A stretch of DNA of 64,000 nucleotides from an uncultured Verrucomicrobiae bacterium (GCA_963846775.1 CAWJXB010000006.1:1702990-1766989), one strand, 5' to 3'. Shown: positions 8,152-60,834, numbered from the stretch's first letter. Numbers and translations: made by a program. Notes: generated from the letters alone by a model not told the origin.

Positions 8152-8183
8152 GACGGCAAAGCGTTGCGGATACCCCTTGGAAT

Positions 8184-8250
8184 GTAGCGGCGGTCTGTGA
8201 CCGTCGCCATCTCTTGGAAAAAGTTTGCGACGCTCATAGAGCGCCGCTAC
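8184..8250. repeat. REP-like pair (inverted + forward unit with ~18-bp spacer)
   Basis: gtagcggcggtctgtgaccgtcgc ... tgcgacgctcatagagcgccgCTAca. The second unit supplies the dipeptidase stop codon. Confidence 0.7.
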
Positions 8251-35599: not shown

Positions 35600-35719
35600 C
35601 GGCTCCACGTCTCGAGCTGATTGCGCCATTGTTGAAGAAACTCCTCCCGGATGTGTCCCTCTCTTGGACCAAATGGCCCGCGCCAGCGCGGCGGCTTCGG
35701 CTCTACAATGAAGCGACCG

Positions 35720-37468: not shown

Positions 37469-37516
37469 CGAGATCGACCATTACGCGCGGTGGACAGAAT
37501 AGCAATGCACTCGGCC

Positions 37517-37834: not shown

Positions 37835-37961
37835 GAAAGCTAAAGCTATTAGGCGGTTCAGGTGGAACGCGCAAGCAGGAATCAGAAGCTTGGGCAGTTC
37901 TCCATTATTGGATCGCCTTTTGTTCAGCGGGAAATTAAGTCTGAGTCGCCCCTAGCCGAAA

Positions 37962-39092: not shown

Positions 39093-39299
39093 CTGATCGG
39101 AATTCGCCATACTCCGACAAGTTTCAACGTCTCCGGTTCGGGAGATTCGTGGCGCAGGCATTTCGGTCGATCCGGACTCGAACGAGTTAGAAGAATTCGG
39201 GAGATTGATCGACGCGAAAGATTGTTCTTAAAGGCGCGGACCGGTAGTTTGTTCGGCGAAGTTGCCCCTTTTCGCCGCGCAATTAAGATCGACGTCATC

Positions 39300-39899
39300 A
39301 TGACGACGATTGGACCAAGCAAATACGGAGCGAAGGAAATCGCGCAGCTTTTCCCCAGTCTGATGCAGATCAAAGAGGAATCGCTCCGGGAAAAAGTAGC
39401 GGCGGTTTGGAATGAAGCGATCACGACCGGCTGTGGCGGGAAGGGCTGGACGTTCGACGAATTGCGCTCGGTGAAATTTACGCTGCTGGCCGGCGATATC
39501 GACATGACGTTCGTCGAGCATCTGAACTCCTGTGCTTTGCAATGCATCGCCATCGCTGATGTGTTGGAGGGGGCATTCCGTTGTGGCATCCCGATCCGCC
39601 GCGATTATCTCATCGCGGGAGCGCTGCTGGCAGATGTCGGCAAGCCACTCGAGTATGATAAGGACGCCTCCGGCAACGTGATCCAGGGCACGTTCGGCCA
39701 GCAGGTGCGGCATCCGTTCAGCGGTGTCGCACTCGCGCACAAGCATGGTCTGCCCGGCGAGGTCTTACACATCATCGCCACCCACAGCCATGAAGGTGAC
39801 AAAGTCGAGCGCTCTATCGAGTCGATCATTTTTCATCACGCCGACTTTGTCGATTTCGACATCGCCAAACTCCTCGGCAAACGGGCCGGGAAAAAATGA
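39300..39899 (+). CDS. HD-domain phosphohydrolase family protein
   Basis: H...HD...H...H...D metal ligands (LLADVGK..., HSHEGD). Start at the internal ATG (MTTIGPS). Confidence 0.6.
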   Translation: MTTIGPSKYGAKEIAQLFPSLMQIKEESLREKVAAVWNEAITTGCGGKGWTFDELRSVKFTLLAGDIDMTFVEHLNSCALQCIAIADVLEGAFRCGIPIRRDYLIAGALLADVGKPLEYDKDASGNVIQGTFGQQVRHPFSGVALAHKHGLPGEVLHIIATHSHEGDKVERSIESIIFHHADFVDFDIAKLLGKRAGKK

Positions 39900-39936
39900 A
39901 CTTGTCCATCCTCGCGTTGTCTGAACGAACACGAAA

Positions 39937-40758
39937 TTGATTCGCCGGAATTTTAGTAGTCGGGCGCGCCAGCTTTCAGGCGGTGATGCGATTCTTATTT
40001 CCATCCCGAAAAGCGGCCGGACATGGCTGCGCACATTTCTCTGCGCTTATTTTTGCCAGCGGTACGGGCGCGAGTTCACGCTCGATCCGCAACGTTATGT
40101 CGATCTTACGATTCCACGCCTAGTCTATTCGCACGATGTGTTTGAACATCGGACGAAAGGAAGCTGGTGGGACCGGTTGCGCGGTAAATATCTCGTGCCC
40201 GCGCGCGAATGGCGAAGTGCGAAAAAGATCATCCTGCTGGCAAGAGATCCGCGGGATTGTTTTGTCTCGCTCTATTTGCAGATGACGCGTCGCACGGCGG
40301 AGACGCCGGCCAAGCTAAAACAGAAAGCCACCAGTGAAATGTTACGGGACGGACGATTCGGCATCCGCGCGATGGTGCGGACGATGAACGACTGGTTGAA
40401 CGAACTCACCCGCCACGACCATTTCGCCTTACTGCGATACGAGACGATCCGGGCCGCGCCAGCAGAGAAATTTCGCGAGTTGCTAGAATGGTTAGGCGAA
40501 AATGATGTCGACTTGCCGATCTTGGAGGGGGCGGTGGATTTTTCCTGCTTCGAGAACATGCAGAAAATGGAAGCAGCCTGGGCTTTCGATTCCAAAATCC
40601 TCCAGCCCGGGGATGCGCGCGACCGGGAATCGTTCAAAGTGCGCCGCGGAAAAATCGGCGGATTCGAAGATTACTTGTCGATCGGCGATCAACAATATGC
40701 CGCCGAGGCGATGAAGAGTTTACATCCTCGGTTTGGCTACGCGCCGTTAACGAATTAA
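39937..40758 (+). CDS. sulfotransferase-family protein
   Basis: PAPS 5'-phosphosulfate-binding loop PKSGRTW and 3'-PB region (LARDPRD), 273 aa. Confidence 0.6.
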   Translation: MIRRNFSSRARQLSGGDAILISIPKSGRTWLRTFLCAYFCQRYGREFTLDPQRYVDLTIPRLVYSHDVFEHRTKGSWWDRLRGKYLVPAREWRSAKKIILLARDPRDCFVSLYLQMTRRTAETPAKLKQKATSEMLRDGRFGIRAMVRTMNDWLNELTRHDHFALLRYETIRAAPAEKFRELLEWLGENDVDLPILEGAVDFSCFENMQKMEAAWAFDSKILQPGDARDRESFKVRRGKIGGFEDYLSIGDQQYAAEAMKSLHPRFGYAPLTN

Positions 40759-46564: not shown

Positions 46565-47032
46565 CTAGTGATCGGCAAAGACTGGCCCGGCGGAAATGTC
46601 TGCGGCGGTGAATTCGAAAACGTGTTCCTTGGCGCGGAGGGTTTTTAGAAGCACCGCCAGATTTTGCGCGGCTTGCGCGGCGTAAAAGCGTACCAGACCG
46701 ACCGTGGTGCGCTTGCCGAAGACCGCAATCATGATCGTTTCATCATCGACCGAATTCATAAAAATGTGGCTGCTGTTGCCCTGATGAAAGAGCGCATTGA
46801 ACTCGACTTCGCCGATCCGGCGGGCGAGCTCACACGTGGCGGCAAATGAACCGGCGGCAAGCGCGGCCATGATCGTGACATCCACAGCCTCCCGTTCGCC
46901 GAACTGTGAGATTACGTTGCCGCCGCGATCAATCACAATCGTCAAATCGCCCTCGGCTTTGTGCACGAACTCGGCCAAAATGGCGTCAAGTGCGGCGACG
47001 TCTTCGATCGTCAGGGCGGGAATTCCGTTCAT
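46565..47032 (-). CDS. mglB: roadblock/LC7-domain protein, MglB-like GTPase-activating protein
   Basis: 155 aa roadblock fold. The C-terminal block (TTVGLVRFYAAQAAQNL) aligns with the MglB TSLGLVRLRIKKASDEL region. 4-bp overlap with the upstream mglA. Confidence 0.75.
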   Translation of the reverse strand: MNGIPALTIEDVAALDAILAEFVHKAEGDLTIVIDRGGNVISQFGEREAVDVTIMAALAAGSFAATCELARRIGEVEFNALFHQGNSSHIFMNSVDDETIMIAVFGKRTTVGLVRFYAAQAAQNLAVLLKTLRAKEHVFEFTAADISAGPVFADH

Positions 47033-47700
47033 GGGGAAGCTTCCTTCTCTTCCGCAGCGCCATGCTGCACTGGGATCGCCACCGGCGGCGGCGGAGTGTG
47101 CGGCAGATCACTTTGTTTGCTAAATTTATGAAGCAAAATCTGCGAAACCGCATTGAGGGCGGAGAATACGTTTTGTCCGGTACTGGAAATGGCCTCGAAA
47201 CTTTGTAATCGCTTCTTCCGGTTGTTCAGAGTGTATTCGAGATAATTGATCGGTGCGACATTCGGCAGATCCCGCTTGTTATACTGAAGCACGAGCGGTA
47301 TGTCGTCGATGTTGGCGTTTTGGAGGGCGAGATTCTCGCTCAGATTCTTGAAGCTTTCCACGTTCTCCTCCATTTTCTCCCATTGGGAATCGGCCACAAA
47401 AACGAGACCATCGGTGCTGCGCAACACGAGCTGGCGGGTAGCGTTGTAAATCACCTGACCCGGCACGGTATAGAGCTGGAACTTCGTCACGAAGCCTTTG
47501 ATCACGACCGCATTCAGCGGTAAAAAATCGAAGAACAAGGTACGGTCGGCAGCCGTGGCCAACGAAACCAGTTCGCCACGATTTTTCGGACTGATCCGCT
47601 GATGGATGTAAGCCAGGCTCGTCGTCTTCCCGCACAGCGCGGGCCCGTAGTAAACGATCTTGAATTGGATTTCGCGGCTGGCGTAATTAACGATCGACAT
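47029..47700 (-). CDS. mglA: Ras-like small GTPase MglA
   Basis: Near-colinear with Myxococcus MglA: (SIVNYASREI)QFKIVYYGPALCGKTT, TLFFDFLPL, LYTVPGQV, DGLVFVADSQ, LQYNKRDLPN. Start at the internal ATG (MSIVNY). Confidence 0.9.
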   Translation of the reverse strand: MSIVNYASREIQFKIVYYGPALCGKTTSLAYIHQRISPKNRGELVSLATAADRTLFFDFLPLNAVVIKGFVTKFQLYTVPGQVIYNATRQLVLRSTDGLVFVADSQWEKMEENVESFKNLSENLALQNANIDDIPLVLQYNKRDLPNVAPINYLEYTLNNRKKRLQSFEAISSTGQNVFSALNAVSQILLHKFSKQSDLPHTPPPPVAIPVQHGAAEEKEASP

Positions 47701-49762
47701 GCGAGGGTTCCGGATAGGCTTGTGAGACTTGCTGGAGAAGCTGCGCCAGTTGCTCACGCGTTTCGGTGCTGAGGTCCTGGCCGTTTTTGTGCCAGGCAGT
47801 CAGGCAAAGTTTGTCTTGCTTGAAAAAGGTCAGGCTCGAATCACCACAATGCAGCGACATTGCCACGAGCCCGCCAAGTCTTGTGTCTTCGAGGTGATTG
47901 TCGATCTTGTCGATCAGCGCTGGCGCGATGGAACAGATCCCTTCGGCCTGCAAATCGCCCGGGATGTTACCCGCCAGGCTGAGGCCGTCCGTGAACGAGA
48001 CGGTGCAACCGGCCACGCCAGTGAGACCACTGGCGCGAGCAATTGCGCGTTTGGCGTCGATCGCTTCCGCCTTGGCCGAGGCTCCGGCAGACGGTTCGAT
48101 CTTTTCTTCAGTTGGACGTTGGGCAGCCCGCCCCGTTTCTTTTTTTACGGGGTTGGGTGTCGGGCGTTGGGCGTTTTCTTTGCCACTCTGAAAACGTTTC
48201 GCGTCCTCCTCCGCTTTGAGCGAAAATGGCGTCTCGAATTTCTCGGTCACCGCTTCCTGTTCCTGGTCCGCGCGCACGCGCAGCGCCGTGACTGGAAACT
48301 GCTTCACGATTTCTGGCAACGGGAGCGTCACCGCTGTCTCGTTAGGATCAACCAGGAAGAGCGGCCGATACGCTTCGGGCACGGCCCGTTCGAAAATGCG
48401 CGCCGGGATACTAACGCGACCAGACGCCAACTGTGGCTCTATCATCGACGACGGAAATTCCACGCGCGCGTCTTCCGGAACGCTCATCGGGCTGCCGTTC
48501 AATTGAAATGGCGGCAACTCGCTCAGGACCGCCTGGAGCGACAAGATAATGTTGCGCTCGCCCTTTCCGCCTGGTGTCGGCGCGACCGGCTGCCTCGGGG
48601 ACGGCTCAGATTTTGCGGCAGGCTCGATCCCCGGCACGAGGGTAAACTTGGGGCGAATATCGTTGCTCGGCGCTTTAACCGCGAACGGAACCGGCGGAAG
48701 CGGCGGTTGATCGAGAGCGACTGTCTCGTTAGGCTTCTGCGCCGGGGCCGCGACGGCCGATTCAGGTTCAGACGCCGAAATTGGAACGGGCGGCCCGCTT
48801 GAGGCTGGAACTCTCTCAGCGGCGGGCGCGCCCGTCCCGTTCGGTGGAAGATGGAACGGAATCTCTCTGGCGGCCGGTGTGGCAATACCATCATCGGCGC
48901 GTGGGGTTTGCAGGGTCGCTGGAGGAGAAGCAGCGGGAGCTGAAGTAAGCGCTCCCAAATCCCGCAGCGAAATCTTTGGCCGGCGGGACCGTGTCGGAGT
49001 TTCCTCGGAAACCTTTTGCTTTGGTTTCGCTAATTGCAGAACGGCGGGTTCAGGCTCGGCTTCGGCGATTGTTTTCGCAATCGCGGGCTCCACTTTCATC
49101 GGCGGCTGCGTCGATGTTTGCAACGGCTCGATCTCGGTGCCAAAGCGCTCCGTGTCCTCGATCGTGACCTGCAAGATCGGCGTGTCGAGCTGGGGCAAAT
49201 TTTCATCGCGTTCTTGATCGTTGCGCACGTGAAAATTGTGGAATTGCTCGAGCACTTTCGCATAGGGAAGCGGGACCGGAGTGGCGTCTCCTGGCGCGAC
49301 GACGTTGACAAAAATTTCCGGCGCCTGTTCATAGATGCTCGCCAGTGGCACACTCGGCTTGCCCTTAGCCATGCCCTTTTCGATCTCCGATGCCATGAGA
49401 ACAATGGTGCGCGCGGCATCAATTTCCTTGGTTGGTTTAATGGCGGTGTTCGGCAACTGATCCAGAATGTCAGACACTTGGAGAGAAATGGTGCGTCGGA
49501 TTTCCGCTTCGGGAGTGCGTTCATTCAGGGGCCGAGCCGTCAAGGGGTCGAGTGCACGAGCGGAGTTCTTCGCCCCCAGAAACGGATCGGACCCGCTCCC
49601 TGGGCGGTTCGCGCTCGGCATCACCGTCTTACTCAAACGCTGATCCTTTGACTTCACTGCCCGCACCATCGGTGGTGCCGCCGGCTTGCTTTTCCCGAAT
49701 GGAAAAAAACGCGCCTTCGCTTTAATGACAAGATCGACAAACGGCAGGTTCATAACGCTCAC
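47687..49762 (-). CDS. Pro/Ala-rich 691-aa protein with internally duplicated motif and C-terminal roadblock/LC7-like domain
   Basis: Low-complexity Pro-rich central region. A ~35-aa motif occurs twice (IYEQAPEIFVNVVAPGDATPVPLPYAKVLEQF and IFERAVPEAYRPLFLVDPNETAVTLPLPEIVKQF). The last ~120 aa resemble a roadblock fold. Confidence 0.6.
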   Translation of the reverse strand: MSVMNLPFVDLVIKAKARFFPFGKSKPAAPPMVRAVKSKDQRLSKTVMPSANRPGSGSDPFLGAKNSARALDPLTARPLNERTPEAEIRRTISLQVSDILDQLPNTAIKPTKEIDAARTIVLMASEIEKGMAKGKPSVPLASIYEQAPEIFVNVVAPGDATPVPLPYAKVLEQFHNFHVRNDQERDENLPQLDTPILQVTIEDTERFGTEIEPLQTSTQPPMKVEPAIAKTIAEAEPEPAVLQLAKPKQKVSEETPTRSRRPKISLRDLGALTSAPAASPPATLQTPRADDGIATPAAREIPFHLPPNGTGAPAAERVPASSGPPVPISASEPESAVAAPAQKPNETVALDQPPLPPVPFAVKAPSNDIRPKFTLVPGIEPAAKSEPSPRQPVAPTPGGKGERNIILSLQAVLSELPPFQLNGSPMSVPEDARVEFPSSMIEPQLASGRVSIPARIFERAVPEAYRPLFLVDPNETAVTLPLPEIVKQFPVTALRVRADQEQEAVTEKFETPFSLKAEEDAKRFQSGKENAQRPTPNPVKKETGRAAQRPTEEKIEPSAGASAKAEAIDAKRAIARASGLTGVAGCTVSFTDGLSLAGNIPGDLQAEGICSIAPALIDKIDNHLEDTRLGGLVAMSLHCGDSSLTFFKQDKLCLTAWHKNGQDLSTETREQLAQLLQQVSQAYPEPSHVDR
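48131..48178. repeat. 35-bp hairpin repeat, copy inside Pro-rich protein coding sequence
   Basis: ccccgtttctttttttacggggttgggtgtcgggcgttgggcgttttct; encodes ...NPVKKETG... on the minus strand. Confidence 0.6.
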
Positions 49763-51477
49763 TGGTCCTCCGCCGTAACGCGCCAGACTTCTTCCAGCGT
49801 GGTGATACCTTCCAGCGCCTTCTCGATTCCAACCTTGCGCAATGTTTTCATTCCTTCGTTCATCGCCTGGTTCTTAATAACCGCAGCCGAAGCGCGTTTA
49901 ATGACGAGCCGCCGGATCGTTTCCGTCACGGTCAGCGCCTCGATAATGGCGACGCGTCCCACATAGCCGCGGCCCTTGCACCGATCACATCCGGAGCCGC
50001 GATAAAAAACTGTATTCTCTCGATCTCGCAGGGCGAGCCGCTCGAGCAGCTCCGGCTCGGGCTTGAATTCATCTTTGCAGTTGGGGCAGACTCGCCTAAC
50101 GAGACGCTGGGCGCAGGTCATGAGAATGGAGCTGGAAATCAAGAACGGCTCGATCCCCATGTCGTCCAGGCGGGTGATCGCACCAGCCGCGTCGTTCGTG
50201 TGGAGCGTGCTTAACACCTGGTGACCGGTCAACGCCGCTTTGACCGCGATGTCGGCAGTCTCGTTGTCACGAATTTCTCCCACCATCACGATGTCGGGAT
50301 CCTGTCGCAGGATCGAGCGAAGCGCGGATGAAAAATCCAAACCGATGTCGCTGCGTACGGCGACCTGGTTCACCCCCATCAGCTCGTATTCGATCGGGTC
50401 TTCCACCGTCACGATGTTGTATTGTGGATTGTTCAGCTCGTGCAGAACGGAGTAAAGCGTCGTGGTTTTGCCCGAACCAGTCGGGCCCGTCACCAGGATC
50501 ATTCCGTGCGGCGCATCGATCGCTTTGCGGAATTTCTCCAGAGTTTCCTGGTCCATGCCTAACTGATCGATCCCGCCGGAAAGGGATGTCTTATCCAGAA
50601 TACGAATCACAATTTTCTCGCCGTGCGCCGTTGGCAGAATCGAGATACGAAGATCGACATCTTTGCCCATGACCCGGACCCGGAAACGCCCATCCTGCGG
50701 CAGACGGCGCTCCGCGATATTCAGCCCGGCCAAAATTTTCATGCGCGAAGTGATGGCAAGCTGAAGCGCTTTCGGCGGCGACTCGGCCGGGAGCAGCTCG
50801 CCATCGACACGGTAACGCAATTTCAGCGCCGTATGGAACGGTTCGATGTGAATGTCTGACGCTTTTTCCTTCACGGCCTGCGCCAGGATCAAATTCACCA
50901 TCTTAATCACGGGCGCGTCGTCGCCGTCGGTCGCCAGACGCTCCAGATCGATCTCTTCGTGTTTGGCCACGTGCACTTTCACGTCGGACGCCTGCACCGC
51001 CGCTTCGGCCGCTTTCTTCAACGCCTGGCTCATGTTGCCGACGCCGTGAATCCCGCTCAGCATTTCGGTGACCGCTTTCTCGGTGGCGATCATCGGGACG
51101 ATCTCGAGCTGGACGCGACGCTTCAGGTCGTCCATGGCCAACACGTTGGTCGGATCGGCCATGGCGACGAAGAGTTTGCCGTTTAAGCGCGCGATCGGCA
51201 CTAACTTGTTCGTCTTGGCCATCTCCCGCGGCACCAGCGCCGTAATCTCTTCGGGCACACGCACCTTTGTCAGGTTCACGGGCGGCGTATTCAGGCACCG
51301 GCCCGTGCTGAACGCCATGTCCTGTTCAGTGACGAATTGTCGTTCCGTCAGGATCTTCAGCAACCGGCCACCCTCGGCTTTTTGAATGTCGAGCGCCTCG
51401 CGCAATTGCGCCGGCAAAAGCAGTCCGTCCTCAATCAGGACGTCGGCGATGCGCTCTCCAAAAGATTTCGTTTTCAT
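49759..51477 (-). CDS. pilB: GspE/PilB-family secretion ATPase (type IV pilus assembly ATPase-like)
   Basis: N-terminal T2SSE_N domain, Walker A GPTGSGKTT, Asp/His boxes, tetracysteine CPNC...CDRC. Start at the internal ATG (MKTKSFGER). Confidence 0.88.
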   Translation of the reverse strand: MKTKSFGERIADVLIEDGLLLPAQLREALDIQKAEGGRLLKILTERQFVTEQDMAFSTGRCLNTPPVNLTKVRVPEEITALVPREMAKTNKLVPIARLNGKLFVAMADPTNVLAMDDLKRRVQLEIVPMIATEKAVTEMLSGIHGVGNMSQALKKAAEAAVQASDVKVHVAKHEEIDLERLATDGDDAPVIKMVNLILAQAVKEKASDIHIEPFHTALKLRYRVDGELLPAESPPKALQLAITSRMKILAGLNIAERRLPQDGRFRVRVMGKDVDLRISILPTAHGEKIVIRILDKTSLSGGIDQLGMDQETLEKFRKAIDAPHGMILVTGPTGSGKTTTLYSVLHELNNPQYNIVTVEDPIEYELMGVNQVAVRSDIGLDFSSALRSILRQDPDIVMVGEIRDNETADIAVKAALTGHQVLSTLHTNDAAGAITRLDDMGIEPFLISSSILMTCAQRLVRRVCPNCKDEFKPEPELLERLALRDRENTVFYRGSGCDRCKGRGYVGRVAIIEALTVTETIRRLVIKRASAAVIKNQAMNEGMKTLRKVGIEKALEGITTLEEVWRVTAEDQ

Positions 51478-52373
51478 GACCCCGGCGAACCCTTGGCCGA
51501 ATCGAGCCGGTAAATTCCCTGCAACGTCTTCACAATGGCCGACGGCCGGGCCAGGTACCACATCACGGTGTAATCGACCGATTGCTGCACCGCTTCGCGC
51601 CCGGCGGCATCGAACGGATTGCAGCACGCCACCATCATCGTTCGGCTAACTAGATCGAACGGCGCGAAGAGCCGGCCCAGCGTGAGGTGTTCCGGCAACA
51701 TCGGCGCGATTTGCCGGTCCACATCGTAATACTCGAGCGGCACGTAAGCGAACTTGGTTCGGTCGATCAGGGCCGAAAGGATTTTTTCCGACTTCTCGAT
51801 ATTATCCTTGCACAAATGGTCTAACAATGAGGCTGCGATCGTTTGTGGCGGCAGTTCCTTGTTCATTTGGTCCACCGCTTTCACCGCCGGTTTCACTTCC
51901 TCTTCCGGGAAGAGTTGTTGAACGATGAGAAATTTTGCGAGCTGATCGGTGCCGCGTTCGTGCAAACTGCTGACTTTACCAACGTTAGCGCCCGGAACGA
52001 TATCGATCAACGCGCCCTCCGCTTCGCCGGCGCCATTGGGGCCGGCCGATTTCGCCGCTGTCGCGCCTGCGGCCTGCAAGCGGGCCTCGATCTCGCCCAA
52101 CATCGCCAGGATGTCGGGCGCGTTCGGTTCTTTCCCAAGCACAACCTCGCATTCCTGCATCGCGTGGGCGTACGAACCCGCGGCGAAATACGCCTCCGCC
52201 AGCCGGCGAGACGTACGCAAAGAATCGGCGTCTCGACCGACTTTCCGGTAAGCCTCCTTCAGAATTTCCAGCGATTGATAGTCGTCGGGTTGGGTTTGAG
52301 TAATTGCCTCAAACATCTCGATCGTCTGGACGATCTGTGTATGTTCTTGTTTCGACAGACTGTGTCCCAGCAC
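51474..52373 (-). CDS. stand-alone GspE-N (T2SSE_N)-like domain protein with TPR-like N-terminus
   Basis: C-terminal ~100 aa (LLDHLCKD...YVPLEYYDVD...LGRLFAPFDLVSRTMMVACCNPFD) resemble the N-terminal domain of PilB/GspE ATPases. 4-bp overlap with pilB. Confidence 0.5.
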   Translation of the reverse strand: MLGHSLSKQEHTQIVQTIEMFEAITQTQPDDYQSLEILKEAYRKVGRDADSLRTSRRLAEAYFAAGSYAHAMQECEVVLGKEPNAPDILAMLGEIEARLQAAGATAAKSAGPNGAGEAEGALIDIVPGANVGKVSSLHERGTDQLAKFLIVQQLFPEEEVKPAVKAVDQMNKELPPQTIAASLLDHLCKDNIEKSEKILSALIDRTKFAYVPLEYYDVDRQIAPMLPEHLTLGRLFAPFDLVSRTMMVACCNPFDAAGREAVQQSVDYTVMWYLARPSAIVKTLQGIYRLDSAKGSPGS

Positions 52374-52494
52374 GTCGCCCTAAAAAAGCTAGAAATATGC
52401 CCCTCGCTCGCTATCGCGACCGAAAAGGAGTGGAATTACACAAATTACCTATAATCCGGGGCATCCTCTTTCCTGATTGTTCGTGAAATTGGCG

Positions 52495-52570
52495 TTAAAA
52501 AAGTCGGAAAAAACAACCTTTTCTCCGAAATTTAGCAAAAAGGGGCGCTGCAATTCGAAAAGGAAGAAGA
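52495..52570 (+). promoter_or_regulatory. conserved ~75-bp upstream element (copy 1, before PMT-like TPR gene)
   Basis: ttaaaaaagtcggaaaaaacaaccttttctccgaaatttagcaaaaaggggcgctgcaattcgaaaaggaagaag; ~75% identical to 54681-54757. Confidence 0.55.
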
Positions 52571-52598
52571 AGTGTCCGCGGTTGCCAAAGCCTGGTCT

Positions 52599-52674
52599 GT
52601 AGCGGCGCGTCTATGACCGTCGCCATCTCTCAGCCCTCCAGTTTGCGACGGTCGCAGACTGCCGCTACAATCGC
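52599..52674. repeat. REP-like pair inserted in 5' leader of the PMT-like TPR gene
   Basis: gtagcggcgcgtctatgaccgtcgcc - 20-bp spacer - tgcgacggtcgcagactgccgctacaatcgc. Confidence 0.7.
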
Positions 52675-52692
52675 TCGCAGGGTGCCTTTGCC

Positions 52693-54561
52693 ATGAACTT
52701 AACCGGGTTGCGGCAGCATACTCGTTGCGCCGCTTTATTGATCGCGCTTGCCGTATTGCCGTACCTACAGACCCTCAGTCACGATTTCATCAACTACGAC
52801 GATAATCTATATGTCACCGAGAACCATCATGTCCAACAAGGCCTGACCTTGCCCGCAATCTCGTGGGCGTTTACCACATTCAAAGGCGGCAACTGGCATC
52901 CCCTGACGTGGCTCTCGCACATGCTGGACATAAACATCTGGGACGGATGGCCGGGCGGGCATCATCTCACGAACGTCGCGCTCCACGCCGCAAATACACT
53001 GTTGTTATTCCTGATTCTACTGGAAATGACCGGTGGCCTCTGGCGGAGCGCTCTGGTCGGCGCTCTTTTTGCCGTGCATCCGCTCCATGTGGAATCGGTT
53101 GCCTGGATTGCCGAACGCAAAGACGTCCTCAGCACTTTTTTTGGCTTGCTTGCTCTCTGGGCTTATCTCGCATATACGCGCCGGCCCTCAGCCAAACAAT
53201 ATTTGGCCATGACCGGTTTTTTCATTCTCAGCCTGATGGCGAAACCGATGCTGGTCACTTTCCCCTTTCTGCTTTTGTTGCTTGATGTCTGGCCACTAAA
53301 ACGATGGAGGCTCGGTCCAGTCGATAGCGAAGGCCGCAGAAGCCATCTCGCCAATGGTAGGGACGGCTCGCCGGTCGATCCGCATCGAGTGTCCCACGAT
53401 GCGGCAATAAAACGCGCTATTCTGGAGAAACTTCCGCTGTTCGTCGTCGCTGCGATGTTCAGTGTGATCGCCATCGTCTCACAACGCGGCACGGGGGCCC
53501 TCGGCGGGCTTGTCGCGTTTCCGCTTTCAACTCGGATCGTCAACGCCTTTGTCGGATACGCGTTGTATCTCGAAAAGCTGGTCGCGCCCGTGAATCTGGC
53601 GGTTTTCTATCCACATCCTGGTCACTGGCCGATGCTTCAAGTCGCGGTGAGTGTTGCCATCCTGTTGGGGATTACCGTCGTTGCCATCTGGCAGCGAGGT
53701 CGGCGGCCATGGCTGCTGATCGGCTGGTTGTGGTTTGTTGGAATGCTCGTTCCAGTAATCGGTTTGATCCAGATCGGTATGCAATCGATCGCCGATCGAT
53801 ATACCTATTTCCCGGCGATCGGCGCTTTCATAATGATCGCGTGGAGCATTCCCGCTGCGATGCCGCCGATGGCAAAGCGCGCGGTGATCGGCGCGGCATG
53901 CATCTGCATTCTTGGCCTAACAATAATGACATGGCGCCAGATTTCCTACTGGCAAAATAGCCGGACGCTCTTTACTCACGCTCTTGCGGTCACGCGCGGT
54001 AATTTCATCGCACACCAAAATCTTGGGAGTGTCTTCGAAGGGGATGGGAACCTCAACGCTGCGCTCGAACAATACCGCTGGGCCGCCAGCGAATTCCCAG
54101 GATACGGAAGGATTCACGAAAACATCGGGAACGTCTTGCTGAAACAGGGCCGTTATCCGGAAGCGTTAGCAGAATTTAAGAGCGCCATCGATCTCGACCC
54201 GCATTCCTCAAGTGCCTTCAACAGCATCGGATCTATCGCGCTCATGAATCAGCAATACGACGATGCGGCGAAGTACTTCCGACGCGCTGTTGAGCTCGAC
54301 CCCGATAACGTTCCCGCGCACATTAACTTCGGCACATCCTTGGTAAAGCTTGGCCGATACGATCAAGCGATTGCGCAATTGGCTCCGATCACGCGAGCGG
54401 AGCCAAAGCGTATTGTGGCCAGAACGAACCTCGCTCGCGCTCTGGCCGGTCGTGGGAATGTCGATCAAGCCATCGCCGAATTGCACCAAATTCTTCAGAT
54501 GCAGCCCGAGTACGCTCCGGCCCGCGAAGCTCTGCAAGAGATTCAAATCAATCGACGATAA
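52693..54561 (+). CDS. PMT-like (DUF1736-type) membrane glycosyltransferase with C-terminal TPR repeats
   Basis: Conserved N-terminal FINYDDNLYVTEN...GLT motif, ~11 TM helices, then 5-6 TPR repeats, 622 aa. Confidence 0.8.
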   Translation: MNLTGLRQHTRCAALLIALAVLPYLQTLSHDFINYDDNLYVTENHHVQQGLTLPAISWAFTTFKGGNWHPLTWLSHMLDINIWDGWPGGHHLTNVALHAANTLLLFLILLEMTGGLWRSALVGALFAVHPLHVESVAWIAERKDVLSTFFGLLALWAYLAYTRRPSAKQYLAMTGFFILSLMAKPMLVTFPFLLLLLDVWPLKRWRLGPVDSEGRRSHLANGRDGSPVDPHRVSHDAAIKRAILEKLPLFVVAAMFSVIAIVSQRGTGALGGLVAFPLSTRIVNAFVGYALYLEKLVAPVNLAVFYPHPGHWPMLQVAVSVAILLGITVVAIWQRGRRPWLLIGWLWFVGMLVPVIGLIQIGMQSIADRYTYFPAIGAFIMIAWSIPAAMPPMAKRAVIGAACICILGLTIMTWRQISYWQNSRTLFTHALAVTRGNFIAHQNLGSVFEGDGNLNAALEQYRWAASEFPGYGRIHENIGNVLLKQGRYPEALAEFKSAIDLDPHSSSAFNSIGSIALMNQQYDDAAKYFRRAVELDPDNVPAHINFGTSLVKLGRYDQAIAQLAPITRAEPKRIVARTNLARALAGRGNVDQAIAELHQILQMQPEYAPAREALQEIQINRR

Positions 54562-54680
54562 TTTTGCCGGGCATTTGCCCGCGCATTGAATAACTCTCAC
54601 GTTTCCCGCCACGCCATGGGTCTTTCCGAGAAGAGCAGTTGGCGCAGGGTCGGTCGCGCCCGCAATTTCCACTCAAAATT

Positions 54681-54757
54681 TTCAAAAAAGGGTGGAAAAA
54701 GCTTGACCTTTTATCCGAAATCTATCAAAACGGACGCTGTAATTCTAACGAGGAGAA
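54681..54757 (+). promoter_or_regulatory. conserved ~75-bp upstream element (copy 2, before PEP-CTERM gene)
   Basis: ttcaaaaaagggtggaaaaagcttgaccttttatccgaaatctatcaaaacggacgctgtaattctaacgaggagaa; ends in RBS 5 nt before the ATG. Confidence 0.55.
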
Positions 54758-54761
54758 TATT

Positions 54762-55445
54762 ATGAGCCCAGAAAACCGAAAACTGAGTCCCCGTATTGAC
54801 GGTCGTTTGGCCGCGTATGCAACCCTGGCAGGTGCCGCCTTAGCCGCGCCGGCTGTCCCGAACGCTGATGCCACTATCGTTTACAGCGGAATCGTCAACT
54901 TTAATATCCCGAGCACGACGGCTGGCATTTATTTGAACGTCGTCACTGGCGTCACCTCGACGACTCCCGCCGGCGCTCCCGGCTGGGACCTGAACCCATG
55001 GAGCAGCAGCTCCCTCGAAATCTGGGGAAATAATTCCGCCAGCCCTAATGATGGTGTTCTGGACAACTTCACGGGAGGCGCAGCTGGTTCAGTCGATAAT
55101 CTTCCGGTTGGAGCTGTCATCGACGCCTCGTGGAACTATGGCAGAACCGATTCTACGGTTGAAACGTCCGGCCCCACTGCCTTTAATCTCAACAGCAGCA
55201 ACAACATTTTTGGATTCCGGTTCTTGAACGAATCTACCGGTGTATATGACTTCGGCTGGGCGCGGGTTTCGCTTTCCGGGACCTTAGGCGGCCAGCCACG
55301 GGCGATTGTGGAGTATGCCTACGAGGACACGGGCGCGGCAATTATGGCCGGCCAAGTTCCAGAGCCTTCTACCATGGCTCTGCTGGGCGTGATGGCAGCA
55401 GGTGCACTTGGCGTGCGCGCCTGGCGCAAGAGTAAGAAGTCGTAA
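54762..55445 (+). CDS. PEP-CTERM sorting-domain protein
   Basis: Signal peptide. C-terminus VPEPSTMALLGVMAAGALGVRAWRKSKKS is the PEP motif + TM + basic tail. AGGAGA RBS 7 nt upstream. Confidence 0.85.
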   Translation: MSPENRKLSPRIDGRLAAYATLAGAALAAPAVPNADATIVYSGIVNFNIPSTTAGIYLNVVTGVTSTTPAGAPGWDLNPWSSSSLEIWGNNSASPNDGVLDNFTGGAAGSVDNLPVGAVIDASWNYGRTDSTVETSGPTAFNLNSSNNIFGFRFLNESTGVYDFGWARVSLSGTLGGQPRAIVEYAYEDTGAAIMAGQVPEPSTMALLGVMAAGALGVRAWRKSKKS

Positions 55446-55477
55446 TCCACGGGCTATTTCGTTTCTTTCTCCAAGGA

Positions 55478-55519
55478 GCCCGCGCGGACGTGAGTGTCGC
55501 GCGGGCTTCTGTTTTTCTG
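55478..55519 (+). terminator. Rho-independent terminator downstream of PEP-CTERM gene
   Basis: agcccgcgcg-gacgtgagtgt-cgcgcgggct stem-loop (10-bp GC stem) followed by tctgtttttct. Confidence 0.7.
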
Positions 55520-55640
55520 GGAGAGCGCCCTGCCTGCCTTCGGCAGAAAAGGCGAACGCCCGCCACGGGTACTAGCGGCCGGTACATATAGGATCGACAA
55601 TCGATTTGCCGATGTAACGATGTAACCATTCAACGACGAT

Positions 55641-56330
55641 ATGAAGGTCTCTGTTGTCATCCCATGCTTCAACGAACGCGACACGATCGAACGAATCATT
55701 GACGCGGTGCGCAGAGCACCGCTGGCAGATCGCGAAATCATCGTGGTGGATGACGGCTCAAACGATGGAACGACGTCCGTTCTGAAGGAGCGAATCACGC
55801 CTCTGGTGGATCGCATTATCTATCAACGTGGCAACCAGGGGAAAGGCGCCGCTCTCCGGGCCGGGTTCGCTGCCGCCAGCGGTGAGGTGATTCTCGTGCA
55901 GGATGCCGACCTCGAATACGACCCGGCGGAGTATCCCATTCTGCTTGAGCCTATCTTTTCCGGCGAAGCGGATGCGGTTTTCGGCTCGCGCTTCATGGGC
56001 GGCGGGCCGCATCGCGTTCTATATTTCTGGCACATGGTTGGAAACAAGTTCCTCACGCTGCTCTCAAACATGTTTACAAATCTCAACCTCACGGATGTGG
56101 AAACCGGCTCTAAAGCCTTTCGCGCATCAGTACTTAAGACGCTGGACTTGAGTGAGGACCGCTTCGGATTCGAGGTGGAGATCGCGGCGAAACTGGCTAA
56201 AACGCGCTGCCGGATTTATGAAGTCGGCGTTTCCTACAGCGGCCGCACATACCTTGAGGGGAAGAAAGTGAATTGGAAAGATGGGGTCCACGCGATCTAC
56301 GCCATTCTGCGTTACAATTTGCTTCCATGA
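55641..56330 (+). CDS. GT2 polyprenol-phosphate glycosyltransferase (Ppm1/DPM1/GtrB-like)
   Basis: 229 aa soluble GT-A (VVIPCFNE, DDGSNDGT, QDADLE DxD). Confidence 0.85.
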   Translation: MKVSVVIPCFNERDTIERIIDAVRRAPLADREIIVVDDGSNDGTTSVLKERITPLVDRIIYQRGNQGKGAALRAGFAAASGEVILVQDADLEYDPAEYPILLEPIFSGEADAVFGSRFMGGGPHRVLYFWHMVGNKFLTLLSNMFTNLNLTDVETGSKAFRASVLKTLDLSEDRFGFEVEIAAKLAKTRCRIYEVGVSYSGRTYLEGKKVNWKDGVHAIYAILRYNLLP

Positions 56331-56692
56331 GAGGAAATCATTCGTGCGGATTCATCGCCGCTCTTGCCGGCGCACACCAAAGCGACGGACCTCGTTGACG
56401 CAGCCCACGCAAGGGGAATAATCCCACTATGACTCTCACCGCTTGACGGTAAGAAGCGCGGCGTGCTGCCTGGAGCAAAGCCGGGAGGCGTTTTCGCCTG
56501 CGAGCAAAAGGCGAATACAATTCTTCTGCGCCGCGTTCACCGAACCGTCTCGCGCAAGAAATTGACCAAGGCACAGGCGCTCAAGGCAGTCCGCGGTTGG
56601 AAAGCGTTGCGCGGCGTGAAGTGGGAAGAACTGCGCGCCAGAGAGTCTTGATTCGGCTCAATCGAACTTATCGAGCCGCCGCTTTCATGAGT

Positions 56693-56725
56693 TTGCGACG
56701 GTCACAGACCGCCGCTACAATCGCC
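56693..56725. repeat. REP-like palindromic unit (forward)
   Basis: tgcgacggtcacagaccgccgctacaatcgcc; identical core to the 3841 copy. Confidence 0.7.
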
Positions 56726-56806
56726 CCAGCGTTGGGCGTGGGCTTTCTTTTAGCAACAAAGATCGACTGAAGGTTCAGCACAACGTTGCGACAGAGTCAG
56801 AATACG

Positions 56807-58834
56807 ATGAACTCCTCTCCGCTGGCCAATCCTTCACGCGTCCTAGTGATCGGTTGGGACGCGGCCGATTGGCAGGTGATCCATCCGTTGGTTGACAATG
56901 GGCTCATGCCCACTCTCCAACGCTTGATCGAAGGCGGTGTGATCGGGAATCTGGCGTCGCTCTCGCCGATGCTTTCACCGATTCTCTGGACTAGCATCGC
57001 TACGGGCAAACGCGCCTACGCTCACGGTGTGCGCGGGTTCATCGAGCCGCTTCCCGATCGTTCCGGCCTCCATCCCGTCGGGACGCGCTCCCGAAAATGC
57101 AAAGCGCTTTGGAATATCGCCTCGCAATCGAACCGCAAAAGCGTGATCTGCGGCTGGCAAGCGAGTCATCCGGCGGAGCCGATTCAGGGCGCGATGGTGT
57201 CGAATCTCTTTTGCATCCCGCCGCTAAATTCAACGCCGGATTCATGGTTAATCCCTGAAGGAAGTGTTCAGCCGCCAGCACTGGCCAGCGAGCTCGCGGA
57301 GCTGCGGGTGCATCCACGGGAAATCGAAGCGACGCCGATTCAGCAGTTGATCCCGCGGGCAGCTGAGCTGGACCAGAAGGATTTGCTTGTCCAACGCCGC
57401 CTGACTTTGTTGACCGAGCGCCTCGCGGAAGTGATCAGCGTTCACGCCGTCGCGACCGAGCTACTGGAAAGAGAACCCTGGGATTTCGGCGCAGTTTATT
57501 ACGAATGCATCGACCAGGTCGGGCACGAGTTCATGTCCTTCCATCCGCCGCGATTACCCGAGATTAGCGAACGCGAATTCGAATTTTATCGCGACGTGAT
57601 AACCGGCGTTTACCGATTCCATGATCTAATGCTGGCGCGCCTCGTCGAGCTGGCGGGACCGAGCGCACACATTATGATTGTTTCCGATCATGGATTCGAA
57701 AGCGGGGCGCGCCGGCCCCGCGGGCGAGTCGAGCCAGCAAAGTGGCATCGGCCACAGGGAATTTTCGTGCTGCATGGCCCGGGGATTCGAGCGGACGAGA
57801 GAATCGAGGGCGCAACCTTGCTCGACATCGCCCCGAGCGCGCTTACCTTGCTTGGGTTGCCCATTGGCGAGGACATGGAGGGCAAACCTCTGGTCAGCGC
57901 GTTCGAGAAACCGCCGGATATCAAACGAATTCCGTCATGGGAAAAGGTAGCGGGCGAAGACGGGCATCTTCCGCCTCGGGCCGGGGATGAAGATCCGGCC
58001 GCTGCACAGGCCGTGCTGCGCCAGTTTATTGCCCTTGGCTATGTCAACGCGCCCGGTGATGACACGCTGCGGCTTATTTCCCTGGCCGAGGACGAATCCG
58101 ATTTCAATGTCGCCGTCAGTTTGTGCGAGGCCGGGCGCGCGCGCGAAGGCAAAGAACTTCTGGCCAAGCTGATAGCCCGAAGACCCGACGAACCGCAGCC
58201 GCGCTATTGGATGGCCTTTGCTCAGGCCTGCCTCAGCGCGCAAACACCTCACGAAGCGGCACCCGCGCTTGATGCGCTAGAGCGAACTCAGCCGGACGCG
58301 CCGCAAACGCTTGTCCTGGGTGGGGTGTTGGCCTGGGTGCGCGGCGATATGGAAGGCTGTGCCGAGGCTTTCCATAAAGCGGAACGCGTTGCTCCTAACG
58401 ACCCAATCACCCAAACGTATCTCGGCCGGCTTTACTTGCGTCAGCGCCGATGGCCGGAAGCCGAGCGCGCCTTCCGGCTCGCACTGAGGGTCAATCCAGA
58501 CATGCCTGAGGCACATTATGGATTGAGCGTGGCGCTGCCACGGCAAAATTTCGTCGAACAAGGAATCGATCACGCTTTGCTGGCCGTGGGTCTGCGCCAC
58601 GAATTTCCCGAGGCGCATTTCCAGCTCGGCGCGTTGCTCTCGCGGATGGGGTGGTTCGAACGGGCCATTCAGGCTTTTGAGATGTCGCTCCGGATGCGCC
58701 CCGGCTTCGTTCTGGCCCATCGTTATCTCTCGCGCATTTACCCTCGCATCGGGCGATCCGATCTGGCCGAGCGCCACCGCAAGGAAGCCGCCCGTCTTTT
58801 GGAAATGCGCGTGCCCCAGCCAATTGCGGATTAG
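56807..58834 (+). CDS. alkaline-phosphatase-superfamily (type I phosphodiesterase/nucleotide pyrophosphatase) protein with C-terminal TPR repeats
   Basis: N-terminal VLVIGWDAADW and the metal-ligand region of AlkP-core enzymes. The C-terminal ~250 aa are TPR repeats. Confidence 0.7.
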   Translation: MNSSPLANPSRVLVIGWDAADWQVIHPLVDNGLMPTLQRLIEGGVIGNLASLSPMLSPILWTSIATGKRAYAHGVRGFIEPLPDRSGLHPVGTRSRKCKALWNIASQSNRKSVICGWQASHPAEPIQGAMVSNLFCIPPLNSTPDSWLIPEGSVQPPALASELAELRVHPREIEATPIQQLIPRAAELDQKDLLVQRRLTLLTERLAEVISVHAVATELLEREPWDFGAVYYECIDQVGHEFMSFHPPRLPEISEREFEFYRDVITGVYRFHDLMLARLVELAGPSAHIMIVSDHGFESGARRPRGRVEPAKWHRPQGIFVLHGPGIRADERIEGATLLDIAPSALTLLGLPIGEDMEGKPLVSAFEKPPDIKRIPSWEKVAGEDGHLPPRAGDEDPAAAQAVLRQFIALGYVNAPGDDTLRLISLAEDESDFNVAVSLCEAGRAREGKELLAKLIARRPDEPQPRYWMAFAQACLSAQTPHEAAPALDALERTQPDAPQTLVLGGVLAWVRGDMEGCAEAFHKAERVAPNDPITQTYLGRLYLRQRRWPEAERAFRLALRVNPDMPEAHYGLSVALPRQNFVEQGIDHALLAVGLRHEFPEAHFQLGALLSRMGWFERAIQAFEMSLRMRPGFVLAHRYLSRIYPRIGRSDLAERHRKEAARLLEMRVPQPIAD

Positions 58835-59197
58835 GCGGCCGTTAACAGTTAGGACTGTTCAACGTCGAAGCGACACCTTGTTTCTCTTTTTTTGTCCCGG
58901 GGCAAGGTCAACTCACGGTCGAAATTCGAATCCTACATTGAAGTTGAGGACACGCGGAAGAGCGCGATAAGATTTTTTCCTTCATGCGTGTTCCAGGAAA
59001 GAATTTGTGGGGAGCCAGCAGGGTGATGGTGATTTGCCTGGCGGACCTTGCAGGCCCAGGGCTCGGGTCCGTTAGGCAAATGCTTTCTACTTGAACACGT
59101 TGTCATTCTGAGCGAAGCGAAGAATCTCTGATTGGTTCAGAGTGAGCCATGCCAAGACAATGACCAGAGATGTTTCTCCCGCGACTGCGGGATCAAC

Positions 59198-60232
59198 ATG
59201 ACAAAAGAGCGCCACGAATTCGCCAGCGATAATACTGCCCCGATTTGTCCCGAAGTCTGGGATGCCCTGGCAAAAGCAAACCGCGCCGCCGCCGCGTCCT
59301 ATGGTGAAGACGAATGGAGTGCGCGACTACACGAACGTGTCCGCGACCTGTTCGAAGCCGATTGCGAGAGCTTTCTTGTCTTTAACGGCACGGCTGCGAA
59401 TGCGCTGGCGCTGGCGCAGCTTTGCCAGCCGTTTCACAGCATCGTTTGTCACGAACGCGCCCACATTGAAACCGACGAGTGCGGCGCGCCGGAATTTTTC
59501 TCCGGCTCTAAACTGCTGGTCGCGCGTGGCGATCACGGTAAAATCGACATTGGCGAGGCGCAATCGGTCATTGGTCGCCAGCCGGAACTACACGCGCAGA
59601 AGCCGCGGGTCATCAGTCTGGCGCAAGCGACAGAGTTGGGCACAGTTTACCAACGGCACGAGATTCGCGCGCTGAGCGAATTGGCCCTTGAACGGTCGCT
59701 CTTCATCCACATGGATGGCGCACGCTTCGCCAATGCCGTGGCGTCGCTTGACTGCGCCCCGAAAGAAATCTCGTGGCAGTCCGGGGTCGATGTTCTCTGT
59801 TTCGGCGGCACCAAAAACGGGCTCGCTGCGGGGGAGCTGGTTGTGTTTTTTAAGAAGGAATTGGCGCGCGAATTCGATTACCGGATCAAACAAGCCGGGC
59901 AGCTCGGTTCGAAAATGCGGTTTCTGGCTGCGGGCTGGCTTGCGCTTCTCGAAAACGATCTTTGGCTGCGCAATGCCGAACAGGCCAATGCGGCCGCGCG
60001 CCGGCTGGCGGAAAAGCTCCGCGGGCTAACGAACATTAGCATTTTGTTTCCGGTGGAAGCGAACGCGATTTTTGTTCGTTTGGAAGAGCGAATCGCACAC
60101 GCGCTGCAAGCAGCCGGCTGGCATTTCTACAGGTTTATTGAGCCTGATGTTTATCGCTTCATGTGTTCGTGGGCGACCAGCGAGCGCGCCACTGAAGATC
60201 TTGTCGCGGAAGTAAAACGTGCGTGGAAGTGA
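59198..60232 (+). CDS. ltaE: low-specificity L-threonine aldolase
   Basis: Beta-eliminating lyase fold with PLP-Lys region (GGTKNG), 344 aa from the internal ATG (MTKERHEFASDN). Confidence 0.85.
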   Translation: MTKERHEFASDNTAPICPEVWDALAKANRAAAASYGEDEWSARLHERVRDLFEADCESFLVFNGTAANALALAQLCQPFHSIVCHERAHIETDECGAPEFFSGSKLLVARGDHGKIDIGEAQSVIGRQPELHAQKPRVISLAQATELGTVYQRHEIRALSELALERSLFIHMDGARFANAVASLDCAPKEISWQSGVDVLCFGGTKNGLAAGELVVFFKKELAREFDYRIKQAGQLGSKMRFLAAGWLALLENDLWLRNAEQANAAARRLAEKLRGLTNISILFPVEANAIFVRLEERIAHALQAAGWHFYRFIEPDVYRFMCSWATSERATEDLVAEVKRAWK

Positions 60233-60282
60233 TGAACCGCCTAAAAATTGCGCCCGGCGCGCGAAGTCGTATAAAGCACGCA

Positions 60283-60834
60283 ATGCCGCATCACGCGCAA
60301 TCGTTTTTGTTGCTTAACCTGTCGATCCTGACAGGAACCGCGTTGGGTGGGTGCAGCGTCGCTCACGATGCTGCCTCCGTGACGTATCACGCTGCATCCG
60401 CAACGTACCATGCTGCATCCACAACGTATCATGCTGCATCCACAACGTACCACGCGGTCACTGTGCCGGTGCGAATCATTAGGCGGAACGTTGCCCATCG
60501 ACTGCCTCCCGACGCTCATGGGGAAAACACGACCACGAGCGTCGTGACCGAAACGGCCCCGACAACTCCGGATTCTTCGATCGCGACGACGCCTGCAACG
60601 CCCCGGAAGTCCGCCCCCCCGCAAAAGGCCGCGGTCTTCTCGAAGGCTAAAGCTTCGCCAACTCCAGGTGCCGTGCCGCGTGTGCAATTTCCAATCGCCG
60701 AGCGGGTTCCCGGCAAATCCGGATTGGTGATGAGCCCGTTCGATCCGGAAGCAAGATATGTCGACGTCAGCGGTTACGCCTCCGGCAGTAAAGTGAAGGA
60801 TCCGTGGACGGAGAAGATTTTCATTGTGCCGTAG
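60283..60834 (+). CDS. lipoprotein with four tandem (V/A/T)TYHAAS heptapeptide repeats and Thr/Pro-rich linker
   Basis: Signal peptide with lipobox-like LGGC. Repeats encoded by four 21-bp tandem units (60380-60463). Confidence 0.5.
   Translation: MPHHAQSFLLLNLSILTGTALGGCSVAHDAASVTYHAASATYHAASTTYHAASTTYHAVTVPVRIIRRNVAHRLPPDAHGENTTTSVVTETAPTTPDSSIATTPATPRKSAPPQKAAVFSKAKASPTPGAVPRVQFPIAERVPGKSGLVMSPFDPEARYVDVSGYASGSKVKDPWTEKIFIVP
60380..60463 (+). repeat. 4 x 21-bp in-frame tandem repeat inside lipoprotein gene
   Basis: gtgacgtatcacgctgcatcc / gcaacgtaccatgctgcatcc / acaacgtatcatgctgcatcc / acaacgtaccacgcggtcact. Confidence 0.8.

Follow-up and report, generated by a model that had tools for sequence, protein, structure and literature searches.

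A cluster of four genes at 52693-58834 in a 64,000-nt stretch of DNA from an uncultured Verrucomicrobiae bacterium (GCA_963846775.1, CAWJXB010000006.1:1702990-1766989; hereafter the window, with positions counted from its first nucleotide) encodes, all on the + strand, a membrane glycosyltransferase of the GT-C type with tetratricopeptide repeats (GT-C/TPR), a small protein with a PEP-CTERM sorting signal that belongs to a compact family (PEPfam), a predicted soluble glycosyltransferase of the GT2 type, and an AlkP-superfamily protein with TPR repeats (AlkP-TPR). Comparison with related loci reveals a layered arrangement, in which an old PEPfam/AlkP-TPR pair was joined by GT-C/TPR, recruited mainly in Chthoniobacterales, and by GT2 only in the subclade of the window. 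By analogy with established systems, GT2 and GT-C/TPR may form a glycosylation module with the PEPfam protein as acceptor, a reading to which we assign a probability of about 0.4. A first-pass annotation of this DNA had proposed such a module for exosortase cargo; the arrangement it described is confirmed and the glycosylation reading is testable and partly supported, with three corrections needed, namely that the link to GT2 is narrow, that AlkP-TPR is predicted to be cytoplasmic, and that the deepest partner of PEPfam is AlkP-TPR, whose standing as its most conserved partner had been missed.

The GT-C/TPR gene (52693-54561; 622 aa) specifies ~11 transmembrane (TM) helices and a C-terminal TPR region, at ~residues 423-622, that is predicted to be periplasmic. 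It is followed by the PEPfam gene (54762-55445; 227 aa, with the ribosome-binding site GAGGAG at 54750-54755 preceding its ATG), the GT2 gene (55641-56330; 229 aa) and the AlkP-TPR gene (56807-58834; 675 aa). The public assembly annotation of the contig gives the same four product lengths, which fixes the starts of the PEP-CTERM and AlkP-TPR proteins at the ATG codons at 54762 and 56807 respectively. The open reading frames (ORFs) were thus found as first described, with the two glycosyltransferase genes on either side of the PEP-CTERM gene.

To place the cluster in context, we scanned one genome per species with a PEPfam profile, which yielded 78 loci, analysed with our own ORF calls and hidden Markov model annotation, from Verrucomicrobiota, Planctomycetota (Phycisphaerales, Isosphaeraceae and Gemmataceae) and a few Burkholderiales and Xanthomonadales; 67 were usable, having at least 1.5 kb of sequence downstream of the PEPfam gene. 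An AlkP-TPR gene started on the same strand at most 400 nt downstream of PEPfam in 26 of these 67 loci, and in 38 it was found downstream at a distance of up to 10 kb. When all ORFs were clustered without supervision, AlkP-TPR came out as the sole widely conserved PEPfam neighbour (41 loci, versus 8 for GT-C/TPR). In the reverse scan, of metagenome contigs with an AlkP-TPR profile, a PEPfam-like or other PEP-CTERM ORF lay directly upstream of AlkP-TPR in 25 of the 62 loci with enough upstream sequence; the remaining 37 are mostly more divergent (~40-46% identity), and a few of them have a PEP-CTERM ORF downstream or on the other strand. The step from PEPfam to AlkP-TPR, present in both Verrucomicrobiota and Planctomycetota, is the deepest link at these loci, and no other partner of PEPfam comes near AlkP-TPR in conservation.

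Adjacency of PEPfam to one GT-C/TPR subclade was observed in ~12 Chthoniobacterales genomes and one of Isosphaeraceae, with one to three copies of each gene and in either order. Related loci come from metagenome-assembled genomes of Chthoniobacterales and other Verrucomicrobiota, which makes a soil member of Chthoniobacterales the most likely source of the window. Three PEPfam genes are interleaved with three GT-C genes in one locus (L004; loci are cited by L number), and L003, L006, L011, L015 and L025 show further arrangements. GT2 is missing beside the pair in L003, L004, L006, L015, L025 and L069, the last a planctomycete locus (Isosphaeraceae) with the order PEP-PEP-GTC-AlkP and a GT-C/TPR protein 48% identical to that of the window, as well as in L167, which keeps PEP-GTC and has lost AlkP-TPR. 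The full quartet including GT2 occurs only in the closest relatives (PEP protein 84-94% identical), and there its order is permuted: GTC-PEP-GT2-AlkP in the window and one JGI contig, PEP-GTC-GT2-AlkP in L081 and L082, where the annotated GT2 stop abuts the AlkP-TPR start (both at 11471 in L081), and GT2 followed by AlkP in L127. These relatives also keep the flanking synteny (PilB, MshEN and Thr aldolase genes). Comparative genomics, which had been suggested as a check on the quartet, gave a divided answer: rearranged PEPfam/GT-C adjacency recurs, and the quartet itself is confined to very close relatives.

The PEP-CTERM protein is encoded by the sole ORF of its kind in the 64 kb and scores 21.3 bits with TIGR02595 (cutoff 16) and 19.6 bits with PF07589, slightly under the cutoff of 20.7. 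Its parts are a signal peptide, a beta-sandwich at residues 38-198, the VPEPS motif, a TM helix and an RKSKKS tail; P200, E201 and P202 are conserved across PEPfam, and Ser, Thr and Asn make up 29.8% of the mature domain. On these features it is a bona fide protein of the PEP-CTERM/exosortase cargo type, predicted to be secreted, and its earlier description as small and Ser/Thr/Asn-rich holds. Exosortase matches were absent among the part of the window genes that was profile-scanned, and to our knowledge the target to which exosortases attach PEP-CTERM proteins is still unresolved. The family is compact and unusually conserved, with ~400 matches of ~225 aa (54-94% identity among the best 120 of the ~400), falls into no curated NCBIfam PEP-CTERM subfamily, and has conserved Ser/Thr-rich loops (PSTT at 50-53, ETTGPT at 134-139). 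Sequence profile searches of the PDB with PEPfam and with the AlkP domain gave nothing, or weak matches to iPGM and PhnA. PEP-CTERM proteins are believed to carry glycans (PMC12188702).

The product of the first gene has the multi-helix membrane fold of the GT-C superfamily, and its best structural matches are the PMT enzymes Pmt4 and Pmt2. The acidic motif in its first extracytoplasmic loop reads FINYDDNLY, with D36 and D37 kept in at least 90% of 74 homologues. Helix positions and the positive-inside rule predict 11 TM helices, with the N-terminus inside and both the TPR domain and the DD loop outside; in the loops between the model helices, Lys plus Arg number seven in loop 200-234, three in loop 334-338 and one in the DD loop. 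In Pfam searches, the N-terminal domain matched neither PMT (PF02366) nor PMT_2, even at E-values up to 10 (some homologues have weak PMT_2 matches only), no MIR domain was found, TPR repeats standing in its place, and DUF1736 (PF08409) was not matched. At the position equivalent to DUF1736, between TM7 and TM8, there is a 47-residue loop with an amphipathic helix at 278-297. Lacking both MIR and DUF1736, the protein would work in the manner of PMT/TMTC enzymes without being a PMT (GT39) member; as for its first-pass designation as a PMT/DUF1736 GT-C protein, the GT-C fold and the PMT likeness stand, and the membership of either Pfam family does not.

The closest architectural parallel lies in human TMTC1-4, for which 11 TM helices and a luminal TPR domain were derived (PMC7801869). 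Shared with them are the N-in topology with ~11 TM helices, the DD motif in the first extracytoplasmic loop, the long TM7-TM8 loop with its amphipathic helix, the non-cytoplasmic C-terminal TPR domain, a presumed lipid-phosphate-sugar donor from a DPM1-type GT2, and an FAVHP-H-E segment, ALFAVHPLHVES / FAVHPLHVES here and LLFAVHPIHT in TM3 of human TMTC3 (quoted in PMC7801869). Unlike TMTC1-4, the window protein is bacterial, has no DUF1736 match and belongs to a very large family (at least 8000 matches, frequently labelled 'protein O-mannosyl-transferase' by JGI) that is mostly unlinked to PEP-CTERM genes. Fold and sequence support its assignment as a PMT/TMTC-like enzyme with a predicted periplasmic TPR domain and a putative ability to transfer mannose to protein Ser/Thr.

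GT2 has a GT-A-type domain with a DxD motif and matches PF00535 (5e-33), and its best relative of solved structure is the Pyrococcus dolichol-phosphate-mannose synthase 5mlz (2e-21, residues 1-210), with ArnC second; its VVDDGS and DADL motifs align with those of 5mlz. It falls below all NCBIfam equivalog cutoffs, scoring 127 bits of 325 for AglJ, 64 of 375 for dolichyl-phosphate hexose transferase, 63.5 of 370 for PpgS and 58.5 of 529 for ArnC. The sequence supports assignment as a soluble polyprenyl-phosphate sugar synthase of the DPM1/ArnC type (AglJ-like as well). Glycosylation through polyprenyl-phosphate sugars, periplasmic or luminal, follows an established two-step route in which a DPM1-type GT2 is paired with a PMT/TMTC-like GT-C, as in Ppm1/Pmt, Dpm1/PMT/TMTC, ArnC/ArnT and GtrB/Gtr, and the Ppm/PMT-type enzyme pair previously proposed for this locus is indeed present, by fold for the GT-C and by likeness to 5mlz and ArnC for GT2. 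With actinobacterial Ppm1/Pmt and fungal Dpm1/PMT it shares the logic of a polyprenyl-phosphate-mannose synthase and a GT-C transferase, Pmt4 and Pmt2 being the best structural matches as noted; it differs from them in the TPR domain that replaces MIR, in having no PF02366 match and in a GT2/GT-C linkage restricted to a narrow clade, and from Ppm1 in that GT2 has no partner domain resembling a lipoprotein N-acyltransferase. ArnC/ArnT and GtrB/GtrA/Gtr, which modify lipid A and O-antigen, target lipids or glycans and are devoid of TPR domains; a gene for a GtrA-type flippase usually adjoins them, of which there is none at this locus.

Gene identities, folds, predicted topology and synteny being established, we infer from them a locus centred on a highly expressed gene for a Sec-exported, exosortase-sorted surface protein with a beta-sandwich fold, the PEPfam protein, whose gene the accessory enzyme genes would have joined in layers. 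GT2 would make a polyprenyl-phosphate monosaccharide at the cytoplasmic face of the membrane, a flippase encoded outside the locus would flip the lipid-linked sugar, and GT-C/TPR would transfer it, on the periplasmic side, to whichever acceptor its TPR domain selects there. Such a domain speaks for a partner that is a protein, and the repeated, rearranged adjacency to a single beta-sandwich family makes PEPfam the best candidate. The adjoining PEPfam protein would also be the most likely acceptor by analogy with TMTC enzymes, which O-mannosylate folded beta-sandwich domains; such domains are reported to be the targets of TMTC and TMEM260. Cytoplasmic AlkP-TPR, the older PEPfam partner, might carry out phosphoester or nucleotide chemistry on a precursor, or handle the pre-protein through its TPR region.

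Several observations weigh against this glycosylation module. A GT-C/TPR gene is present at only 8 of the 67 usable PEPfam loci and a GT2 gene at none of the 78 species-representative ones. Stand-alone GT-C/TPR homologues are common in their large family; those at 50-53% identity stand among housekeeping genes with no PEP-CTERM neighbour in the three contexts checked, and a closer homologue (59% identity, L168) is not beside PEPfam either. The locus contains no flippase gene, and a further GT-C-type gene (37962-39092), which is PIG-V-like and belongs to a glycan cluster at a distance of 15 kb, could equally use the GT2 product. A terminator lies between the PEPfam gene and GT2; with its own promoter and this strong terminator, the PEPfam gene is not simply part of an operon shared with the enzymes. 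It is not obvious where the cytoplasmic AlkP-TPR would fit into glycosylation in the periplasm, the conserved Ser/Thr positions of PEPfam are equally kept with or without an adjoining GT-C (a comparison confounded by phylogeny), and the choice of PEPfam as candidate acceptor is inferential throughout. Some of these points would fit an alternative that we consider unlikely, namely that the glycosyltransferases have no direct functional link to the PEP-CTERM protein: the quartet would be inherited synteny in a narrow Chthoniobacterales lineage, GT-C/TPR a general-purpose enzyme that happens to lie there, and the PEPfam/AlkP-TPR pair alone a real module. The absence of GT2 elsewhere, the homologues away from PEPfam, the common flanking synteny of the quartet relatives and the standing of AlkP-TPR as the only widely conserved neighbour all agree with it; yet PEPfam/GT-C adjacency survives changes of order and copy number (PEP-GTC, GTC-PEP and the three-and-three interleaving of L004), the triplet is found in the planctomycete L069 as well, and L167 retains PEP-GTC after loss of AlkP-TPR.

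Alternatively, GT-C/TPR and GT2 might modify a glycan or lipid (exopolysaccharide (EPS), lipopolysaccharide or another envelope polymer), with PEPfam as a polysaccharide-associated surface protein resembling PepA and all of these genes serving the same matrix. Full-domain matches to the PepA flocculation protein (NF033554) do recur below threshold, the window protein scoring 20.5 bits and its relatives 17-34 bits against a cutoff of 80, so that membership of that family was rejected and PEPfam appears to be related to PepA distantly at best. In Aquincola, a stem-loop terminator separates pepA from the TPR gene prsT downstream, a layout strikingly like that of PEP gene, terminator and TPR genes here, and PepA overexpression turns soluble EPS into bound EPS (PMC9850573); a glycan gene cluster also occurs in the same window. 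As judged from the periplasmic TPR domain fused to GT-C, which indicates a protein partner, the best fold matches, which are protein O-mannosyltransferases, and the conserved module, which has no polysaccharide export or polymerase genes, this possibility is nonetheless somewhat improbable. The pepA-prsT loci of Aquincola tertiaricarbonis and Zoogloea resiniphila (PMC9850573, PMC1569441) resemble the present one in that a PEP-CTERM gene under its own promoter is followed by a stem-loop terminator and a TPR gene, and differ from it in that PEPfam stays at ~20 bits with the PepA profile, that the TPR proteins here are enzyme fusions (to GT-C or AlkP) and not PrsT lipoproteins, and that the PEPfam promoter, TTGACC-N17-CAAAAC, is not of the sigma-54 type. 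Membership of PrsT (TIGR02917) was likewise rejected for the window TPR proteins, whose 74 and 56.6 bits (cutoff 312) reflect generic TPR similarity. Haft et al. (2006) suggested a possible role for TPR proteins in directing the covalent modification of PEP-CTERM proteins, and Verrucomicrobium has no PrsT in the table of that study (PMC1569441), which leaves room for the TPR-enzyme fusions described here in such a role.

AlkP-TPR matches PF01663, the NPP/phosphodiesterase type of the AlkP superfamily (6e-24, 85.8 bits, cutoff 23), followed by TPR repeats, and D18, S57, D236, H240, D294 and H295, the metal ligands and Ser nucleophile, are invariant in 20 diverse homologues. None of ~40 homologues inspected has a signal peptide or TM helix, and the protein is predicted from its sequence to be cytoplasmic. 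The first-pass annotation had likened it to EptA or LTA-synthase-type enzymes. EptA and LtaS belong to PF00884 and combine N-terminal TM helices with a catalytic domain in the periplasm; AlkP-TPR shares with them the bimetal core of the AlkP superfamily and differs in belonging to PF01663, with no PF00884 match in Pfam, and in being free of TM helices and signal peptide, for which reason the analogy fails and a periplasmic phospho-transferase of this type was rejected. PF01663 also includes the glycosylphosphatidylinositol (GPI) ethanolamine-phosphate transferases. Among metagenome loci, a subgroup of AlkP-TPR proteins (L092, L093, L112, L114, L118 and L126) reaches ~900 aa through an extra C-terminal extension, and several of these genes still have a PEPfam-like gene before them.

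AlkP-TPR could itself be what modifies or escorts PEPfam: the TPR region would bind the cytoplasmic pre-protein (at the signal peptide or basic C-terminal tail) and the AlkP domain would add or remove a phospho-group on the protein or on the exosortase acceptor. Against this stand the cytoplasmic location of the enzyme, PEPfam being exported, and the ~37 of 62 more distant AlkP-TPR loci that have no PEP-CTERM gene directly upstream. We regard it as having a low probability, even though it draws on the strongest and deepest synteny signal, on the invariant active site, on the GPI enzymes of PF01663 and on a likeness of the TPR region to LcrH/SycD, chaperones of class II secretion (E 3e-7), that goes no further than generic TPR similarity. 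A joint reading, more doubtful still, would make PEPfam/AlkP-TPR an unrecognised two-gene module of at least two phyla, in which a cytoplasmic phosphoryl-transfer enzyme of the AlkP type with a TPR adaptor prepares the pre-protein or the exosortase acceptor, by a logic like that of the PF01663 ethanolamine-phosphate transferases in GPI anchor synthesis. The linked GT-C/TPR proteins would then be TMTC-type protein O-glycosyltransferases, the first from bacteria for which a dedicated substrate can be identified.

Our literature searches found no description of a linkage of PEP-CTERM proteins to PMT/TMTC-like enzymes or AlkP-TPR proteins, AlkP-TPR did not turn up in those on PEP-CTERM proteins and exosortases, and no paper was found that names an acceptor for a bacterial GT-C/TPR protein. 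The association is in this sense largely undescribed, as had been surmised; the component activities are of known kinds, and the combination and the proposed substrate are apparently new. PEPfam and GT-C/TPR thus offer a candidate enzyme-substrate pair, one 160-residue beta-sandwich with one GT-C subclade, which in this lineage has the donor synthase alongside. If the pairing is true, domain-specific O-glycosylation of the TMTC type would extend to bacteria, and there would be a handle on the maturation of exosortase cargo in abundant, mostly uncultured soil Verrucomicrobiota.

The PEPfam gene is preceded by a promoter-like motif, TTGACC-N17-CAAAAC (54703-54731, +), that occurs once in the window. 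Its general form, TTGAC[CGT]-N16-18-nA[AG]AAC preceded by an A-rich tract, was found in 17 Verrucomicrobiota loci (e.g. L003, L004, L016 and L081), and of its 27 matches in the 3.9 Mb of loci fetched, 17 stand immediately before a PEPfam gene, a near-exclusive association that suggests a dedicated sigma factor or regulator for these genes. The sharing of an upstream element by the GT-C and PEP-CTERM genes, noted in the first pass, is real and reflects this PEPfam-specific motif: alignment revealed ~90 nt of similarity between 54670-54761 and 52485-52575 (+), upstream of GT-C, where a degenerate copy of the promoter (−35 ACAACC instead of TTGACC) and 5' leader is found, and a 24-nt pattern within the element occurs at these two places only in the window (0 expected by chance). 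The GT-C copy is possibly the relic of a duplicated PEPfam gene, because PEP-GTC-PEP arrangements exist in L004 and L015. An E-value scan of 52000-59200 with Rfam gave no matches, so that the shared leader corresponds to no known RNA family. The terminator after the PEPfam gene (55474-55518, +) is of the intrinsic type and consists of a hairpin (−30.7 kcal/mol, z −4.4) with a U-rich tract behind it.

A 33-nt element upstream of both GT-C/TPR and AlkP-TPR, which looks like a sigma-70 promoter (TTGCGA-N17-TACAAT), was rejected as a signal of co-regulation, since it is half of a dispersed palindrome resembling repetitive extragenic palindromic (REP) sequences, one copy of which lies between convergent genes. 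The core of this repeat, CAGAC[CT]GCCGCTACA, has five copies in the window versus 0.06 expected, at 824-839 (−), 3851-3866 (+), 8128-8197 (−), 52606-52674 (+) and 56692-56724 (+). Two of them are full hairpins of ~65 nt (−36.7 kcal/mol), including the one in the GT-C leader (52606-52674; z −5.1), which is a dispersed genome repeat and not a locus-specific signal; that upstream of AlkP-TPR (56692-56724) is a half-copy that mimics the promoter. The repeat was also seen in a Ca. Udaeobacter contig (L013:2550-2565). The half-copy lies in the gap between GT2 and AlkP-TPR (56331-56806), which at 476 nt is unusually long, the same genes abutting in L081 and L082, also holds a basic 62-aa ORF (56463-56651, +), and may be an insertion remnant.

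Elsewhere in the window, the glycan-biosynthesis cluster at 33204-40758 contains an NTP_transferase-TonB_C fusion (33204-34478), GT2 and GT4/GT1 glycosyltransferases, the PIG-V/GT87-like GT-C (37962-39092), an HD-domain protein and a sulfotransferase. Upstream of the four-gene cluster, a block on the − strand (46565-52373) encodes a Roadblock/LC7-like protein, an MglA-like small GTPase, a 691-aa Pro-rich protein, a PilB/GspE-type ATPase with an MshEN domain and a TPR protein with MshEN; it is syntenic in the closest relatives and may be a motility or polarity module, its MshEN domains being of the cyclic di-GMP-binding type. Downstream, at 60223-60834 (+), lies a 203-aa ORF without a match in Pfam or NCBIfam. 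Its N-terminus resembles a lipobox (LGGC), it contains (A)AS(A/T)TYHA repeated in tandem, and L001 has a 33% identical counterpart at the same position.

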